Of a stretch of 9,262 nucleotides of DNA, positions 32 to 6,226 are shown piece by piece. This DNA comes from an archaeon (GTDB taxonomy: Archaea; Asgardarchaeota; Thorarchaeia; Thorarchaeales; Thorarchaeaceae). Below the pieces are notes generated by a model, which saw only the letters and a program-made list of their open reading frames with translations, did not search any database and was not told where the DNA came from. The stretch covers positions 1-9,262 of the forward strand of contig JAJRZD010000074.1 of NCBI GenBank assembly GCA_024275415.1, read 5' to 3'. The translations under genes were made by a program, and so were the position numbers. The first letter of the stretch is position 1. Every line of letters begins with the position of its first letter.

Positions 32-1873
32 CTATTCAGACATATATGGGTCCTCATCGATGTCTATCCCGAAGTACCCCATCTCTTCAAGAATGTCTTC
101 CATTGCTTCCGCACCTGAAACCCATGTCACCTTCCAATCTCCTTCAGGTGTCAAGATAAGTTCTACATCCGGAAGATCACCAAGCAGGTTGTGGTTCATC
201 TCGATGACATCTTGATATGCGCCTGTAAGAGCGATGACAAAATAGGAACCCTGTACATCCTTGAGCGACCCCACAGGTATCCCGAGCCCCATCTCTGCGT
301 TTGGCATTGCAATTGGTCTGTTGTCACGGGCAAACCACACCTCACCTACACCTTTCCTATGAAACTGGGATATCTCTCCATCAGAGTCGCAAGTGATGTC
401 CACAAGCCTGACCGTGGTTTCGGGTCTTAGATGGAGGTCTCTGACCGGGATGATGGGGAAATGCTGTTGAACCAGCACATGATCTCCAGCAGCATTGAAG
501 ACACTAAAGTTCCCGATGACGATGTGGTCAGGATACCAGATGTTTTCCAGTATCCTGTCTGACCTTAGGCTCTTGCTTCCCAATCGAGCAAGCTGACGCC
601 TCATCTCAGCACGAAGCTCGCCCACAAACCGCTCCTTGTCTAAGAGGCTCTCCAATGTTTCTGTTGTAGGTTTGGCGACTGAGAGATACTCATTCCAGAT
701 ATCCGCAAGCTCTGATATGGATGCAGCATCACTCAGTTTGTTTTTCCAATTCTCCATAACCTCCAGAAGATGTATTGGCAGTTCGTGTTCTGGTGGGAAT
801 ACTGATCTCACTTCAAGTGCTTTCACCACGACCATCGAGGACAACGCCGTAATTCCTCTTCCAGACTCGATCATGATGTCAGGCGGCTGTCGAGCGCTGC
901 CTATGTTCTTCACTTCATCTAGGATGCCCATTACGATTGCCTGTGCATACCGTTCCATCAAATTCGGGGAATGCGAACTCGTATAATCAATAGGCAAGCC
1001 ACCACCAAAGTCAATCCTCCGCAATTCCTTCAAGCCCCTCTCCCTTAGTTCGTAGAACACCCGAGTCATGAATCCGGCGAACCTTCCAAAGTCCTCGATA
1101 GCAGTGATTTGAGACCCAACATGTCCTAGAACCGTTGTGACACAGTTCTCGAAACCCTCCTTCTTGAGCAGGTCAATGACACTAAGAAGGTCGTGAATGC
1201 TCAGCCCGAACTTGGAATCCCTTCCTGCGGAGTGTGACCAATGTCCTCTGACCGTCAGATACGGCTTGATTCTAAGGACGAGAGATGTTTCTTGCGAACT
1301 CAGGATATCTACGATAAGTCTAGCCTCGTGGATTGACTCTATCGATATAGCAATGTTGTATCCATCTTTGACAAACTCCTCGATGGCTCGCAAATACTCA
1401 GGATCCTTCGCTCCATTGCAGATGATGAGCCTGTCCTTCTCGTCCTTAAGGACACTTCGTATGAGATACAATTCAGCCTTGGTTCCAGCCTCAAGCCCAT
1501 ATGACCTGTCTGCTTGCAGTACTGGGATAACGCAATCCTTCCGCTGATTCACCTTTACAGGATAAACAGCACCGAACTTCCCTTTATAGTCAAGTTCAGC
1601 CATGACTCTAGTGAAGGCGGACTTCAATTTGTGAATCTGGTAATGGATAAGCTGGGGCATCCTAAGTGTGAACGACGATGTGTATGCAGTCCTTGAGCCG
1701 TTTTCCGATTCGATCTTGCGGATGAGTTCGTCAAATGCAATGGTCTTGCCCATGAATCGGATGAACAGCTTGCCGTCATTCCCGATGTCAAGGAAATGGA
1801 GGTCATTCTTGCCAAGCCCATACACTACCCGCGACCTGTCTATTGTCCACTCTTTTGCCTTCACATGAGTCAC
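32..1873 (-). CDS. speA: Biosynthetic arginine decarboxylase (PLP-dependent, fold type III, SpeA family)
   Basis: 613-aa ORF with the SpeA motifs in order: YPVKVNQ (PLP lysine), GLEAGTKAEL, ICNGAKD, SKFGLS, HVGSQI, DFGGGLPIDY, ESGRGI, NFSVF, DITCDSDG, GAYQDV..NHNLLG. The annotated start is GTG at 1873. GTG at 1864 is at least as likely, because GGAAGTGA (1877-1870) lies 5 nt upstream of it. Confidence 0.93.
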   Translation of the reverse strand: MTHVKAKEWTIDRSRVVYGLGKNDLHFLDIGNDGKLFIRFMGKTIAFDELIRKIESENGSRTAYTSSFTLRMPQLIHYQIHKLKSAFTRVMAELDYKGKFGAVYPVKVNQRKDCVIPVLQADRSYGLEAGTKAELYLIRSVLKDEKDRLIICNGAKDPEYLRAIEEFVKDGYNIAISIESIHEARLIVDILSSQETSLVLRIKPYLTVRGHWSHSAGRDSKFGLSIHDLLSVIDLLKKEGFENCVTTVLGHVGSQITAIEDFGRFAGFMTRVFYELRERGLKELRRIDFGGGLPIDYTSSHSPNLMERYAQAIVMGILDEVKNIGSARQPPDIMIESGRGITALSSMVVVKALEVRSVFPPEHELPIHLLEVMENWKNKLSDAASISELADIWNEYLSVAKPTTETLESLLDKERFVGELRAEMRRQLARLGSKSLRSDRILENIWYPDHIVIGNFSVFNAAGDHVLVQQHFPIIPVRDLHLRPETTVRLVDITCDSDGEISQFHRKGVGEVWFARDNRPIAMPNAEMGLGIPVGSLKDVQGSYFVIALTGAYQDVIEMNHNLLGDLPDVELILTPEGDWKVTWVSGAEAMEDILEEMGYFGIDIDEDPYMSE

Positions 1874-1891: not shown

Positions 1892-3361
1892 CTACTGGGG
1901 CTCATCTTCTTTTATGGAGTCGAGCATCCCTTGGAACGCTCTTGCGAGGTCTCCAATCTCGTCATCCTTATCCATGTATCTCTTATCAACTTGAAGGTCT
2001 TCGGCATCAAGCTTCTCTTCCCTGATCATGGCTGAAACATTGCGAGTTGCAAGATCCATCAAGTACTGTAAAGGCCCAGTGATTTGATTGGCGACTGCAA
2101 CTGCCACCACAGCTGCCAATGCAATACCTCCTACAGTTATGGCAAGAATGAACATGGTGGCAGCAACATTGGCTTCTGTAATCCTTGCTTCAAGAAGTGG
2201 TATGGCTTCTTGCACCTCCTCCACAGGGACGATGATGATACAGATGTAGCCTCCAACTCCAACAGGTGTGTGAACAAGAATGAACTCCTTGTTATCTTTG
2301 CTGAACTCGATAGTTCCCGTTGTCCCTGAAAGGATCTGATTCATCTGGACTGTGGTCAATGCCGATGTTGTCCCGTCCACCTCGAACTCCTGAAGAGTAG
2401 GTAATCTCCCAAACTGTGTGTCGTACCGCTCATAGACATCATCGTCCACATTGGGGTGCGCTAGAATCTCACCTGACTGGGTCACCAATGCGGCATATCC
2501 TGTTTCTAAGATTTGAACATCAAGAATCTTTGATCGGATGTTCTCAATGGATATGTCACCGGCGACTATCCCGATTAGCGTTGCAGTATCATCGTAGACT
2601 GCTCTTCCAATTGACATCAGAAGGACGTTGTCTATTGGGTCCAGATATGGTCCATAGTAGACCATTTCTCCCATTCCTGCGCGGATTGCCTGATAGAATT
2701 CATCACCTGTAGGATACCATGGGTCTGTATTCCTATCAGTATCAGTTCCTCCTACGGAACTCCCAGGATAATTGATCCACAGGTCATTCTCAAAGCCAAC
2801 GTACAACCATCTGAACTCGGGTAACTGGGCATGGACATACTGGAACATAAAGTCGAGGTTGGAAACCCGTTCCAGTTTCTCTTGATTCGCAGTATAGTAG
2901 GTGGCGTAGTTAGTGGAATCCGAACCTGGAATGTACCAGCTACTGTAATTCCAGCTGATATTGATTCCATATCTGGAGTCATAATGCGTATCAGCAGGGT
3001 ATGTCCCAGCGGCACCGTATTGGAAGAAGTAGTCATAGTAAATGTTACTTCTTGGAAGGTAGGTGGAGCTCGAATCGAATAACTGCTCGCATTCTTCGGC
3101 GATAGCAGAAACCAGACCTTCGGCACTCTGCAACTTTTGCTTTATCACATCAGCATTCTCTTCTGCTGTTATCTCCATGTTCCTTCGGATCTGTTCCTCA
3201 AGTGCAAGCGAACTCTGACTGGTTGTAGAACTCCCAATCAAACCGATGAATTGGTATGAGATGAAGCCTGTTGCACCTAGTGATAGAATTGTTATCACTA
3301 GGAATGTTGCAATTACATTTCTCCGAAAACTCCCTTTCTTCTTTGTCTTTTCCATGGTCAT
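1892..3361 (-). CDS. Membrane sensor: TM1 - extracytoplasmic dCache_1-like domain - TM2 - HAMP, with no cytoplasmic output domain
   Basis: Basic N-terminus (KTKKKGSFRR), then hydrophobic TM1 (aa ~16-42). Cache signatures: WLYVGF..INYP, GPYLDP, IGIVAGDI, GYAALVTQSGEILAHP. TM2 at aa ~400-424. HAMP helices ITGPLQYL and DDEIGDLARAFQGML, with the stop ~9 aa later. Probable start is ATG 3355, 8 nt after GGAGG. Confidence 0.85.
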   Translation of the reverse strand: MTMEKTKKKGSFRRNVIATFLVITILSLGATGFISYQFIGLIGSSTTSQSSLALEEQIRRNMEITAEENADVIKQKLQSAEGLVSAIAEECEQLFDSSSTYLPRSNIYYDYFFQYGAAGTYPADTHYDSRYGINISWNYSSWYIPGSDSTNYATYYTANQEKLERVSNLDFMFQYVHAQLPEFRWLYVGFENDLWINYPGSSVGGTDTDRNTDPWYPTGDEFYQAIRAGMGEMVYYGPYLDPIDNVLLMSIGRAVYDDTATLIGIVAGDISIENIRSKILDVQILETGYAALVTQSGEILAHPNVDDDVYERYDTQFGRLPTLQEFEVDGTTSALTTVQMNQILSGTTGTIEFSKDNKEFILVHTPVGVGGYICIIIVPVEEVQEAIPLLEARITEANVAATMFILAITVGGIALAAVVAVAVANQITGPLQYLMDLATRNVSAMIREEKLDAEDLQVDKRYMDKDDEIGDLARAFQGMLDSIKEDEPQ

Positions 3362-3363
3362 CT

Positions 3364-3368
3364 CCTCC
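3364..3368 (-). promoter_or_regulatory. Shine-Dalgarno site GGAGG overlapping the upstream stop codon (TAGGAGG), consistent with translational coupling
   Basis: The minus strand reads TAG-GAG-GAG-ATG-ACC-ATG. GGAGG lies 8 nt before ATG 3355. Confidence 0.7.
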
Positions 3369-6208
3369 TAGTAATCGTCGGTTGTCCCTCCGACTTCCAG
3401 CTGTGCCATCATCACGGCGACCTCTTGGAACGCTCTTTCAATGTCCAACCTCACATTCTTGCTATCCACCACTGAGAAGTATTGACCTTGTGGGATAGAT
3501 TCACAGACTGACTCTAGTAACTCCTCGAATGTCATCCTCCGCCCTGTTCTTTCTGATCTGATATTCTCCTCGATTGGATTGGCCAATTCCTCTCCCACTC
3601 CAATGATGATCAAATTGACATCAAGGTGGTTATCTCGAATGAAACCCTCTATAGTAAGAGGTCTCCTTCTTCTTTGTCTGTCTTTCTCAGTCCGTATTCC
3701 TTTCAACATGTCAAGTGAGTACTTCTCAGAGCTATTATCTTGCCCATCCGTTAAGGCAATGACCCATCTGTGTTCGCTAGATTCGATTAGGTTTAGATCT
3801 TCCAGTGCTCTACCAAGTGCATCGTAGAATGCAGTAGCATAGTTCGGATACCTCAGAGAATCAAGCGCTTTCCATATCGGGCTATCTTTTGGATTCTCGT
3901 ATTCACCCTTTCTAGTAAGTGGAAGCAGCTGTTGGTATGAGCTGTTGAAGATGATTATGCCGACCTCATCTTGAGGGTTAATTTGACTAGAAAGTATCTC
4001 TTTTGCTCCAGTAACCGCAGCTTGAATCCGGTTCTGTGCTCTCATGCTTCCGGAGTAGTCGATGACAAATACCACGCTCTTCTTGAATTGTATCGAACGT
4101 CGCAGTTTCTCTGCTTGCCTTCGCAATTCGTGGCTTGACTCACCGAGTTGGTCTTTCACATCTGCAAGATGCTGCATGGCAACCACTTGCAATGCATATT
4201 CCTCGGTTCGCTCAGCATAGTTCACTGACTCTTGGTATGCGTTTTTCGCCTTTTGCCATTCGTCCTGCAACTCATGAAGTTCACCGATGTGATAGTTGAT
4301 GTATGCAAGCCCTCTATCGTAGTTGTGGTCTTCAGCTATACGTTTCGCCTCATTGAACTTGGAATAGGCTTGGCTATACTGTCCTTTCCGCATCATGACC
4401 AGACCCATTGCATCATATCGTCGGGCCAGTCCTCTTACATTCCCTATTGTCTGGTCAATGGCCTCTGCATCTTCAAGCCTCGATATGGCGTCATCGAATT
4501 CCTTCATGTCCATTTTTATGAGTGCAATGTTGTGATACGCTGAAGCAACTCGATCCATAGCATCGGTTTCATTCAGTCCACCTTCCTTTGCTTGCTTCAG
4601 AAGTTCTTTTGCAAGAGTAAGAGCCCGTTCGTAGTATTCTAGGGCATTCCCTGTATCTCCTCTTTGCCTGAAGACATTCCCAATGTTGAGATACATGGTC
4701 TGCTCCCCAATATCGATATCAAGCCTTCTACTGATCTCAAGCAGATTCTGGTAGTTAGACAATGCCCTGTTCAGGTCTCCACGGATGAATGCCTGATTTC
4801 CAAACCGGCAAGCTTCTTGAAAACTGAGAAGCGCGTCTACTGTCGTTCCGATTTCTTCATACATTGCTCCTGTAGCGGTGATGCTTCTCGTGAAGTCTTG
4901 TTTTGCCATCTTCTCCACGAGGTTTGTCATCTCCCTCAACGGCTCAACGACCGACTGTCCTCTCTTATAGGACACCACGCCCACAATTATCGCAACAGCA
5001 CCCAGCACTCCACCAAGGATGAGTGTCAGGAAGAATGTCTGTTGTTGCACTAGAGCAAGGATGTCCACTGCTGGCTGTACGACCTCAGATGAAGGAACCA
5101 CCACGGCAAGCAGGAATCCTGTGTTGTTAACACGTTCATAGGTGAAATACCACTCCTCTCCATCTTTGATGAAGGTGTCTTGTCCGCTACCCGAAGCAAG
5201 TGCACCGGTAAGGATGGATGAGAATGCGGTTCTTTCACTTGTTGATTGGAACTCAAGTTCGTAAATAGACTCGCGAGCGTCTGTCAGGTCTGGGTGAGCA
5301 AGAACATCACCATCCGATTCGAGGATGTATGCGTAGCCACTTTCCAGCACTTGGATGTCTAGGACACTTGTCAGGATTGTGTTCATGGTCACATCAGCTG
5401 ATACAACACCAATCAGTGTGCCATTGTCCCAGTAGATTGGCCTACCTAGTGAGATGACAAGTCCTGTTGAAGGGTCTCCGTATGGGCTAGTTATTACGAT
5501 TCCATCATCATTCATGGGGACTGCAGCAGCACTTGTGTACCATCCTTCTACCTGAGGATTGTAATCCTCGGCTGGTGTATCTCCAAGGAAATATTCGAGG
5601 TTATCGTAAGGATAGTTCTTGAACAAGTGGCTTGAGCTTACCGTTTCATCAAAGTACATGTACAGCCATATGTAATCAGAACTCATCTCATGCAATGACC
5701 GGAAGACATTGTCCATGTTGCTTGAAACATTGAGCAGATACTCTGTGGTAGTGTCAAGATTGAAGGGATCACCAGGTGTTGGATAGTAGTTTCTAGGCAT
5801 GTAGTAACAACTTGTTTCAAAGGAAATCGAGTACGAATCATAATCGGGGTTATATGAGGGGTCTAACCCCGGAACTGGATGCCCTCTCGAACTCTCTAAT
5901 GCCGGATCCCAGAAATAATAGTCTTGGGGGTTAGCATTTATCCTACCGTTAAAGAGGTCTTCTGCATACTTCTCCATGATATATACTCCATCAATGTAGT
6001 TCTTCATGCGCTCTTCGATGAACAGCGCAGTATCTCCTGCAATTCTCTGGAGATTTGCAACCTCTTCATTCTTCAGTGCTTGTGCAGCATCGCCTGCATT
6101 CTCATTTGAAACATTGAATATTGTCATCACTGATATTCCAGAGATGAACAGCATCGGGATCAATGAAACCGTCACGAATGCCACAATTATTCTCCTACTG
6201 ATTTTCAT
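3368..6208 (-). CDS. Membrane sensor: TM1 - dCache_1-like - TM2 - HAMP - TPR array - vWA (MIDAS) domain
   Basis: TM1 at aa ~7-30. Cache signatures: WLYMYF..KNYP, YNPQVEGWY, SPYGDP, IGVVSADV, GYAYILESDGDVLAHP. TM2 at aa ~392-413. HAMP: VVEPLREM...EEIGTTVDAL. About 5-6 TPR units at aa ~463-700 (e.g. YLNIGNVFRQRGDTGNALEYYERAL, YHNIALIKMDMKEFDDAISRLEDA). vWA at aa ~711-935 with VFVIDYSGSM (DxSxS), TAFYDAL and IALTDGQDN. Confidence 0.88.
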   Translation of the reverse strand: MKISRRIIVAFVTVSLIPMLFISGISVMTIFNVSNENAGDAAQALKNEEVANLQRIAGDTALFIEERMKNYIDGVYIMEKYAEDLFNGRINANPQDYYFWDPALESSRGHPVPGLDPSYNPDYDSYSISFETSCYYMPRNYYPTPGDPFNLDTTTEYLLNVSSNMDNVFRSLHEMSSDYIWLYMYFDETVSSSHLFKNYPYDNLEYFLGDTPAEDYNPQVEGWYTSAAAVPMNDDGIVITSPYGDPSTGLVISLGRPIYWDNGTLIGVVSADVTMNTILTSVLDIQVLESGYAYILESDGDVLAHPDLTDARESIYELEFQSTSERTAFSSILTGALASGSGQDTFIKDGEEWYFTYERVNNTGFLLAVVVPSSEVVQPAVDILALVQQQTFFLTLILGGVLGAVAIIVGVVSYKRGQSVVEPLREMTNLVEKMAKQDFTRSITATGAMYEEIGTTVDALLSFQEACRFGNQAFIRGDLNRALSNYQNLLEISRRLDIDIGEQTMYLNIGNVFRQRGDTGNALEYYERALTLAKELLKQAKEGGLNETDAMDRVASAYHNIALIKMDMKEFDDAISRLEDAEAIDQTIGNVRGLARRYDAMGLVMMRKGQYSQAYSKFNEAKRIAEDHNYDRGLAYINYHIGELHELQDEWQKAKNAYQESVNYAERTEEYALQVVAMQHLADVKDQLGESSHELRRQAEKLRRSIQFKKSVVFVIDYSGSMRAQNRIQAAVTGAKEILSSQINPQDEVGIIIFNSSYQQLLPLTRKGEYENPKDSPIWKALDSLRYPNYATAFYDALGRALEDLNLIESSEHRWVIALTDGQDNSSEKYSLDMLKGIRTEKDRQRRRRPLTIEGFIRDNHLDVNLIIIGVGEELANPIEENIRSERTGRRMTFEELLESVCESIPQGQYFSVVDSKNVRLDIERAFQEVAVMMAQLEVGGTTDDY

Positions 6209-6217
6209 GTCTTACAT

Positions 6218-6226
6218 TCACACTCC
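6218..6226 (-). promoter_or_regulatory. Shine-Dalgarno-like GGAGTGTGA overlapping the upstream stop codon
   Basis: The minus strand reads TAGGAGTGTGAATGTAAGACATG. GTGA ends 9 nt before ATG 6208. Confidence 0.55.

Follow-up and report, generated by a model that had tools for sequence, protein, structure and literature searches.

The DNA that we analyzed, here called the window, is an entire contig of 9,262 bp (C54) from an archaeal genome of 3.5 Mb that is 93% complete, and the names attached to orthologues in the databases place its source in the Thorarchaeota, within the Asgard archaea. Four genes on the minus strand, separated by gaps of 17, 6 and 18 bp, encode a propeller protein, a long membrane receptor, a short paralogue of this receptor and a SpeA-like enzyme. 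The long receptor (3368..6208, minus strand) is the subject of this work. Translation of its open reading frame (ORF) and Pfam searches gave a protein of 946 residues with a first transmembrane segment (TM1), a dCache_1 sensor, a second transmembrane segment (TM2), a divergent HAMP domain, a TPR array and a vWA domain, in that order. A preliminary description, made from the sequence alone, had singled out positions 3404-4966 of the minus strand, which correspond to residues 415-935 of the ORF, as an unusual receptor output: HAMP would run without a linker into TPRs and a vWA domain with a complete metal-ion-dependent adhesion site (MIDAS), and HAMP motion would open or close that site.

A hydrophobicity scan found two hydrophobic segments flanking the Cache domain. 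TM1 (residues ~5-29, 6122..6196; this and the following receptor coordinates are on the minus strand) comes after the basic stretch MKISRR, and TM2 spans residues ~390-413 (4970..5041). Between them lies the dCache_1 sensor (residues ~40-385, 5054..6091), which was recognized by Pfam with 75 bits (E = 6.7e-21) and by matches to PctA, PctB and Mlp-type structures in the PDB. The positive-inside rule argues for a cytoplasmic N terminus, which would put the sensor outside the membrane and everything after TM2 inside.

The part that follows TM2 and HAMP consists of a TPR array (residues ~464-690, 4139..4819), a linker or capping helix (residues 693-706, 4091..4132) and a vWA domain (residues ~710-940, 3389..4081), which includes a basic loop and a C-terminal tail that ends in DY. 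Pfam placed TPR_12 (74 bits, E = 1e-20), TPR_2 and TPR_1 above threshold in the array, and VWA_2 (50.2 bits, cut-off 27) and VWA (37.8 bits, cut-off 23.8) in the domain after it. An AlphaFold2 (AF2) monomer model of residues 386-946, built from a 34-sequence alignment (predicted local distance difference test score, pLDDT, of 78), showed five full TPR hairpins, one further helix and the capping or linker helix, all with pLDDT >90, followed by a domain of alternating strands and helices, as a vWA would give, with pLDDT ~80. In Foldseek searches the repeats matched LGN/KLC-type TPRs (E ~1e-8); with the whole cytoplasmic model as the query TPR matches dominated, and nothing specific was returned for the vWA. 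The count of about five to six TPRs that had been made from the sequence is thus borne out by Pfam, AF2 and Foldseek.

Searches of the 946-residue protein with Pfam and NCBIfam found no enzymatic output domain or domain of methyl-accepting chemotaxis proteins (MCPs), i.e., no MCPsignal, HisKA/HATPase_c, GGDEF/EAL, cyclase or PP2C match. Because none of these was detected, the output of the receptor is most plausibly protein binding. Conservation, expressed as the mean fraction of orthologues with the same residue as the window protein, was highest in HAMP (0.77) and vWA (0.75), and lay between 0.54 and 0.60 in the sensor.

The HAMP domain (residues ~414-468, 4805..4969) gave a Pfam score of 18.4 bits against a cut-off of 25 when residues 408-475 were scanned by themselves, with AS1, the first of its two helices, alone being matched, and a profile of the region found no HAMP match among PDB sequences. 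In the AF2 monomer TM2 and AS1 formed a single long helix; HAMP as a whole was modelled with low confidence, the connector and AS2, the second helix, having pLDDT <50. The layout after TM2 fits a HAMP domain, with a conserved proline in AS1 (P423), a variable connector and an AS2 that starts with an E-[IL]-G-type motif at E452 (EEIG in the window protein). The same sub-threshold match was present in 31/34 orthologues. We also examined an alignment of 41 distant family members, i.e., the window protein and 40 relatives, and found HAMP matches at the homologous position with E<=1e-3 in 21 of them, the best at 1e-13. The distance from TM2 to P423 was 10 residues in 40/41 members, and both P423 and E452, which opens AS2, were nearly invariant. 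Judging from position, motifs and these family-level Pfam matches, we read the HAMP domain of the long receptor as divergent but genuine.

The strings quoted in the preliminary description for AS2 (451-466) and for the first TPR helix (467-487) directly abut. The distance from E452 in AS2 to G470 in TPR1 was 18 residues in 41/41 members, which share 21-41% identity, and the alignment remained free of insertions and deletions up to G501; the HAMP connector, unlike this spacing, varied in length from 27 to 31 residues. The 18-residue spacing was also kept in a protein from a contig labelled as a giant-virus metagenome-assembled genome (MAG) and in three chytrid proteins. When the TPR consensus was placed on the sequence, G470 fell at position 8, Y474 near position 11 and G477 at position 15, so that helix A of TPR1 begins at about residue 464. 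Since this start falls within the end of AS2, the two helices overlap rather than just abut, and AF2 modelled a single helix across residues 457-475, the first TPR helix being continuous with AS2. The absence of a linker between HAMP and TPR, which had been claimed for this one protein, therefore holds family-wide. As far as sequence alignments can tell, the junction is rigid and of fixed length, which is what mechanical transmission of HAMP motion would lead one to expect.

The vWA domain carries a DxSxS motif (D717, S719 and S721, 4046..4060), a downstream Thr (T792, 3833-3835) and a downstream Asp (D821, 3746-3748) at canonical spacing, and all five residues lie where they had originally been placed. 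They were invariant in 119/119 full-length orthologues. Among the 41 distant members, D717, S719, T792 and D821 were invariant and S721 was at least 90% conserved, and the five residues were all present in the viral-MAG and fungal members. By these residues, the MIDAS motif of the long receptor is intact. The nearest PDB sequences of the domain were the vWAs of ITIH1 and BatB, and the sequence was otherwise generic. A Sec23/24-trunk-like identity was considered and dropped, no such Pfam match being found at E<=0.1. A strongly basic loop of low model confidence (KDRQRRRRP; residues ~834-850, 3659-3706) is inserted in the vWA; its net charge was positive in nearly all Thorarchaeota orthologues and not in distant relatives, and conceivable contacts of the loop are membrane lipid, nucleic acid and an acidic tail. 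The C-terminal tail of the receptor, QLEVGG-T-T-x-DY (3371-3403), was almost invariant in the Thorarchaeota orthologues, and a VEG[GF] motif persisted in distant relatives. MIDAS sites and TPR carboxylate clamps both recognize acidic peptides, and the tail could be a ligand of the MIDAS or the TPRs, in cis or in trans.

A word-indexed search returned more than 120 clusters of full-length orthologues with at least 59% identity. None of these clusters had a functional name, and nearly all of those with an organism name were labelled Thorarchaeota. An exhaustive profile search added about 40 more clusters, formed at 50% identity, with proteins of equal length and collinear matches; named organisms among these distant relatives included Lokiarchaeota, Hodarchaeales and Sigynarchaeota, and dCache_1 and VWA were each found in 40/41 aligned members. 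The HAMP-TPR-vWA module was present in 95/301 sampled Asgard genomes, including 60/76 genomes of the window's own taxonomic family, and 34 more genomes in seven other families carried it. A full-length member lies beside a short Cache paralogue on the 116-kb giant-virus-MAG contig (L024, 3868-8235), and further full-length members are named from the chytrids Cladochytrium, Zopfochytrium, Gonapodya and Chytriomyces (P0426-P0429). The architecture that had been called unusual is hence not unique; it belongs to a conserved family that occurs in Asgard archaea and extends to the viral-MAG contig and chytrids. We found no description of it in the literature on Asgard archaea or elsewhere, and the dCache-HAMP-TPR-vWA receptor family is apparently undescribed.

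Comparison of receptor neighbourhoods showed that the order of propeller, long receptor, short paralogue and SpeA-like gene was kept in two other Thorarchaeota loci (61-71% receptor identity), in a locus labelled Lokiarchaeota (41%) and in a Hodarchaeales locus (33%). At more distant loci only the short Cache protein stays beside or near the long receptor, and it did so in all seven loci examined, including those without a propeller gene. The propeller protein was found under the same taxon labels as the receptor and in 78/301 sampled Asgard genomes; outside the window's family, 11/13 propeller matches (families f9, f22 and f24) were on the same contig as a receptor match and within ~3 kb of it.

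The propeller gene (6226..7668, minus strand) lies upstream of the receptor and encodes 480 residues, or 475 in the databases, which start it at 7653. Pfam, AF2 and Foldseek were used to examine its product. The AF2 model (pLDDT 82) consisted of a six-to-seven-bladed propeller (residues 1-263), a helix, a Zn ribbon (residues 292-313), two winged-helix domains and a C-terminal helix, and a hydrophobicity scan found no transmembrane segment. Foldseek matched generic WD40, NHL and IFT propellers and returned nothing specific for the winged helices. An FG-GAP match was sub-threshold (FG-GAP_3, 22.7 bits against 26.9). The first winged helix was PCI-like, just below threshold, in 16/24 members, and a profile of the winged-helix region gave no significant match to PDB sequences. 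Both DNA binding and a scaffold role for this part would be compatible with the searches.

Because the receptor output consists only of protein-binding modules, and because the propeller protein is the most faithful cytoplasmic neighbour of the receptor, we tested it as a partner by complex prediction, with receptor residues 467-946, the propeller protein and Mg as the input. The three runs gave interface (ipSAE) scores of 0.63, 0.63 and 0.61, compared with 0.00 for the best control. In a calibration, 58/80 solved complexes and 2/110 mismatched pairs reached the mark, counts that are only a rough guide here, since the input included a ligand and alignments of our own. The runs shared at least 55% of contacts, and the partner had a pLDDT of at least 83. 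On the receptor side, the predicted interface was formed mainly by the helix of residues 693-706 between TPR and vWA, whose conservation also marks it as the predicted propeller-docking site, and in addition by the terminus of the last TPR helix and its following loop. The lowest expected errors were at H693, R696, E700 and R704, which spiral along one face of this helix and were invariant in 34 aligned orthologues. In the model the helix lies on the propeller's top face and contacts at least one residue of every blade, and the propeller contacts include the invariant residues Y16, Y35, S56 and R59. The predicted contact thus involves the helix of residues 693-704 and not the MIDAS. A SH..R...E motif in this helix was kept in the propeller-bearing relatives at the Lokiarchaeota-labelled and Hodarchaeales loci (L020 and L021) and absent in the propeller-less L022, L023 and L024, a pattern that was consistent across this small sample. 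The prediction supports, and does not show, docking of the propeller protein on the receptor arm.

The best PDB sequence matches of the sensor were PctA and PctB, and CACHD1 was also among the matches. Pocket residues W223, Y224, Y243 and D272, which hold the amino group of the ligand in PctA, are conserved. The equivalent of PctA R126, the Arg that binds the ligand carboxylate, is E221, and among 119 orthologues this position was Glu in 105, Gln in 13 and Leu in one; the amino-acid motif (AA_motif) of dCache_1AA sensors is therefore incomplete, its Arg being replaced at E221. An amine (AM) motif of dCache_1 has been published (PMC10589655), and our comparison covers single pocket residues. 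Because the carboxylate-binding Arg is lost, the residues for the amino group are kept and an arginine decarboxylase neighbour is conserved, we infer that the ligand of the Thorarchaeota sensor is probably an amine (agmatine or polyamine) rather than an amino acid. At the position equivalent to E221 (pocket residues 221-222, window 5543-5548, minus strand), Arg was kept in 23/41 distant relatives, and the alignment suggests a switch of ligand class within the receptor family.

Downstream of the receptor, the short paralogue (1892..3361, minus strand) encodes 489 residues with a transmembrane segment, dCache_1, a second transmembrane segment, HAMP and an acidic tail (KEDEPQ, 1892-1912) that runs to the stop codon. 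Pfam recognized both dCache_1 and HAMP in it. It is 26% identical to residues 4-430 of the long receptor and has no output domain, and the two receptor proteins probably form a pair. The tight cluster ends with a gene (32..1873, minus strand) for a SpeA-like arginine decarboxylase of 613 residues, dependent on pyridoxal phosphate (PLP; Orn_Arg_deC_N, 8e-25). It scored 345 bits with the NCBIfam model for biosynthetic arginine decarboxylase, below the cut-off of 369. Strings PVKVN, HVGSQ, GGGLP and CDSDG are present in the protein; we take these to resemble motifs known from fold-type III PLP decarboxylases, namely those of the PLP lysine and the active site.

Our preferred explanation, to which we give a probability of roughly 0.55, is that the long receptor serves as long subunit in a transmembrane receptor system that works without an enzyme, is conserved in Asgard archaea and docks the propeller protein on its cytoplasmic arm. 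An extracytoplasmic dCache_1 domain would bind a small ligand, and the signal would cross the membrane into the divergent HAMP, whose AS2 is joined without a linker, and in a register that does not vary, to the first TPR helix; the TPR solenoid has five to six repeats and bears the MIDAS vWA. The output would be a rigid docking arm, with HAMP setting its position or accessibility and no catalysis being involved. Through the helix with H693, R696, E700 and R704 this arm would dock the soluble propeller/Zn-ribbon/winged-helix protein, so that ligand binding outside may control recruitment, release or orientation of this protein at the membrane. The MIDAS would be left free for a second, acidic ligand; this could be the short paralogue, by way of its acidic C terminus, or the SpeA-like enzyme. 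Several points weigh against this explanation. Docking rests on one structure-prediction test, and the predicted interface leaves the invariant MIDAS unexplained. In the window protein the HAMP match is sub-threshold, and in the monomer model this domain has low confidence. The propeller protein was not detected at E<=1e-15 in four receptor-bearing Asgard families (f5, f12, f14 and f27), and no propeller gene was found near the receptor on the viral-MAG contig, so that not all members of the family can have the propeller protein as their partner. Furthermore, the SpeA-like gene may have kept its place beside the receptor genes because they are regulated together, and not because their products are physically coupled. 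With respect to the original proposal of non-enzymatic outside-in signalling, the lack of an enzyme or MCP domain agrees with it and signalling through a docking arm is plausible; the route through the MIDAS fared less well, the predicted contact lying outside this site.

That route would be an integrin-like switch, in which HAMP rotation, transmitted through the TPR solenoid, moves the C-terminal helix of the vWA and toggles the MIDAS between closed and open, so that an acidic residue of a partner would be bound in just one signalling state. Switching of this kind is established for integrin I domains, and the family-wide conservation of the five MIDAS residues, the rigid and gap-free HAMP-TPR junction, the long C-terminal helix after the last vWA strand and the conserved tail all speak for it. 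However, five to six TPRs (~230 residues) separate HAMP from vWA, we are not aware of a case in which an allosteric change crosses a solenoid of this kind, and the sole partner contact that has prediction support lies off the MIDAS; opening and closing of the MIDAS over this distance is a conjecture, and we think it unlikely. The MIDAS might also serve a latch within the complex: the acidic end of the short paralogue, or the DY tail of the receptor itself, would occupy this site or the TPR groove and keep a long/short heteromer off until ligand arrives. The short paralogue accompanies the long receptor in 7/7 loci, propeller-less ones included, and in each Thorarchaeota, Lokiarchaeota-labelled and Hodarchaeales copy examined it ends right after HAMP in an acidic tail (KEDEPQ in the window; GEEE, EEESEE, EEEEEDQ and DDEEDEDF among the relatives at L007, L008, L020 and L021), but the more distant short paralogues (L022, L023 and L024) have long tails that are not markedly acidic, and such a latch seems to us rather improbable.

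TPR and vWA domains are classic assembly scaffolds, and the long receptor might simply be a constitutive membrane anchor for the propeller protein and the SpeA-like enzyme, with a structural or surface-binding Cache domain. The PCI-like, sub-threshold winged helix of the partner in 16/24 members and the presence of a metabolic enzyme in the tight cluster agree with this. We nonetheless consider it a rather poor candidate: dCache_1 and HAMP form a dedicated pair for signal input and transmission, and this pair, together with the conserved pocket (W223, Y224, Y243 and D272) and the strongly conserved HAMP, favours ligand-driven signalling. Finally, the vWA might be a substrate adaptor of a MoxR-type AAA+ ATPase, as in RavA-ViaA or BatA/B-type systems, and a MoxR/AAA+ partner had been anticipated in the preliminary description. 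The genome does encode a canonical MoxR (AAA_3, 2e-62), and the BatB vWA is among the nearest PDB sequences. However, this MoxR gene lies on another contig (C7), ~1.2 kb from a different vWA match, and no AAA+ gene was found in any of the seven receptor neighbourhoods. We therefore rejected MoxR as the partner and regard this explanation as very improbable.

Among known systems, PctA, PctB and PctC, Mlp-type chemoreceptors and Cache histidine kinases share the TM, dCache_1, TM, HAMP module and the two-TM topology with the long receptor. In the long receptor only TPR and vWA follow HAMP, and there is no MCP, kinase, cyclase or phosphatase domain. The sensor differs as well, with Glu, or in a minority Gln, replacing PctA R126 in 118/119 Thorarchaeota orthologues. 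A Cache_heme-HAMP (CHH) receptor of Pseudomonas azotoformans has no enzymatic output and signals via a bound Ser/Thr kinase encoded in the same operon (bioRxiv 10.64898/2026.05.25.727664). It is similar to the short paralogue and, in its overall logic, to the system proposed here, but in CHH the kinase grips HAMP itself, whereas the long receptor has a covalent TPR-vWA arm, a predicted propeller partner and no kinase. The integrin head likewise combines a propeller with a MIDAS vWA; here the two are encoded side by side and are predicted to bind each other. Unlike in integrins, both parts would be cytoplasmic, and the modelled contact is at the helix before the vWA and not at the MIDAS face.

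The only described proteins that join dCache_1 with a MIDAS vWA are alpha2delta and CACHD1 (PMC8915833, PMC4822843). In alpha2delta the Cache domain houses the VWA as an insertion, and the two lie outside the cell, whereas the vWA of the long receptor (residues 710-940) is C-terminal, after TM2, HAMP and the TPRs. According to PMC8915833, all eukaryotic dCache_1 proteins carry an inserted VWA, and no dCache_1AA proteins were reported in fungi; the chytrid members, as judged from their sequences, do not fit the former statement. BatA/B, ViaA and CoxE have the same generic vWA fold with a MIDAS; the long receptor differs from them in its domain context and in having no linked AAA+ gene.

Outside the minus-strand cluster, a divergently transcribed gene (7738..8817, plus strand) encodes a histone-deacetylase-family protein of 359 residues (Hist_deacetyl, 3.6e-77). 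It occupies the same position in the two other Thorarchaeota loci (L007 and L008) and is not present in the Lokiarchaeota-labelled or Hodarchaeales loci (L020 and L021); its product is possibly an acetylpolyamine or protein deacetylase, perhaps tied to the polyamine theme. The plus strand also has an ORF that runs off the 3' end of the contig (8915-9262) and another at the opposite end (3-215), both without a Pfam match.

As a rule, characterized membrane receptors that use HAMP terminate in an enzyme or in a signalling domain for chemotaxis. In the long receptor, the input machinery of HAMP receptors would instead drive a docking arm alone, and the protein would add a new output variant to the Cache-HAMP receptors. 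The family is nearly universal in Thorarchaeota and is also present in several other Asgard lineages, on the giant-virus-MAG contig and in chytrids. A broader interpretation would be that the system is a prokaryotic device for ligand-controlled, enzyme-free recruitment of a propeller and PCI-like winged-helix adaptor to the membrane. The receptor family would be common to Asgard archaea, early-branching eukaryotes (chytrids) and their giant viruses, and would bear on how receptor-adaptor signalling and the dCache-VWA combination arose in eukaryotes; this is tentative, and taken as a whole we find it doubtful. If propeller docking and a MIDAS ligand are confirmed, the receptor would define a new output class of transmembrane signalling in those archaea that are most closely related to eukaryotes. 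The conserved arginine decarboxylase neighbour suggests a concrete physiological readout, namely the sensing of agmatine or polyamines.

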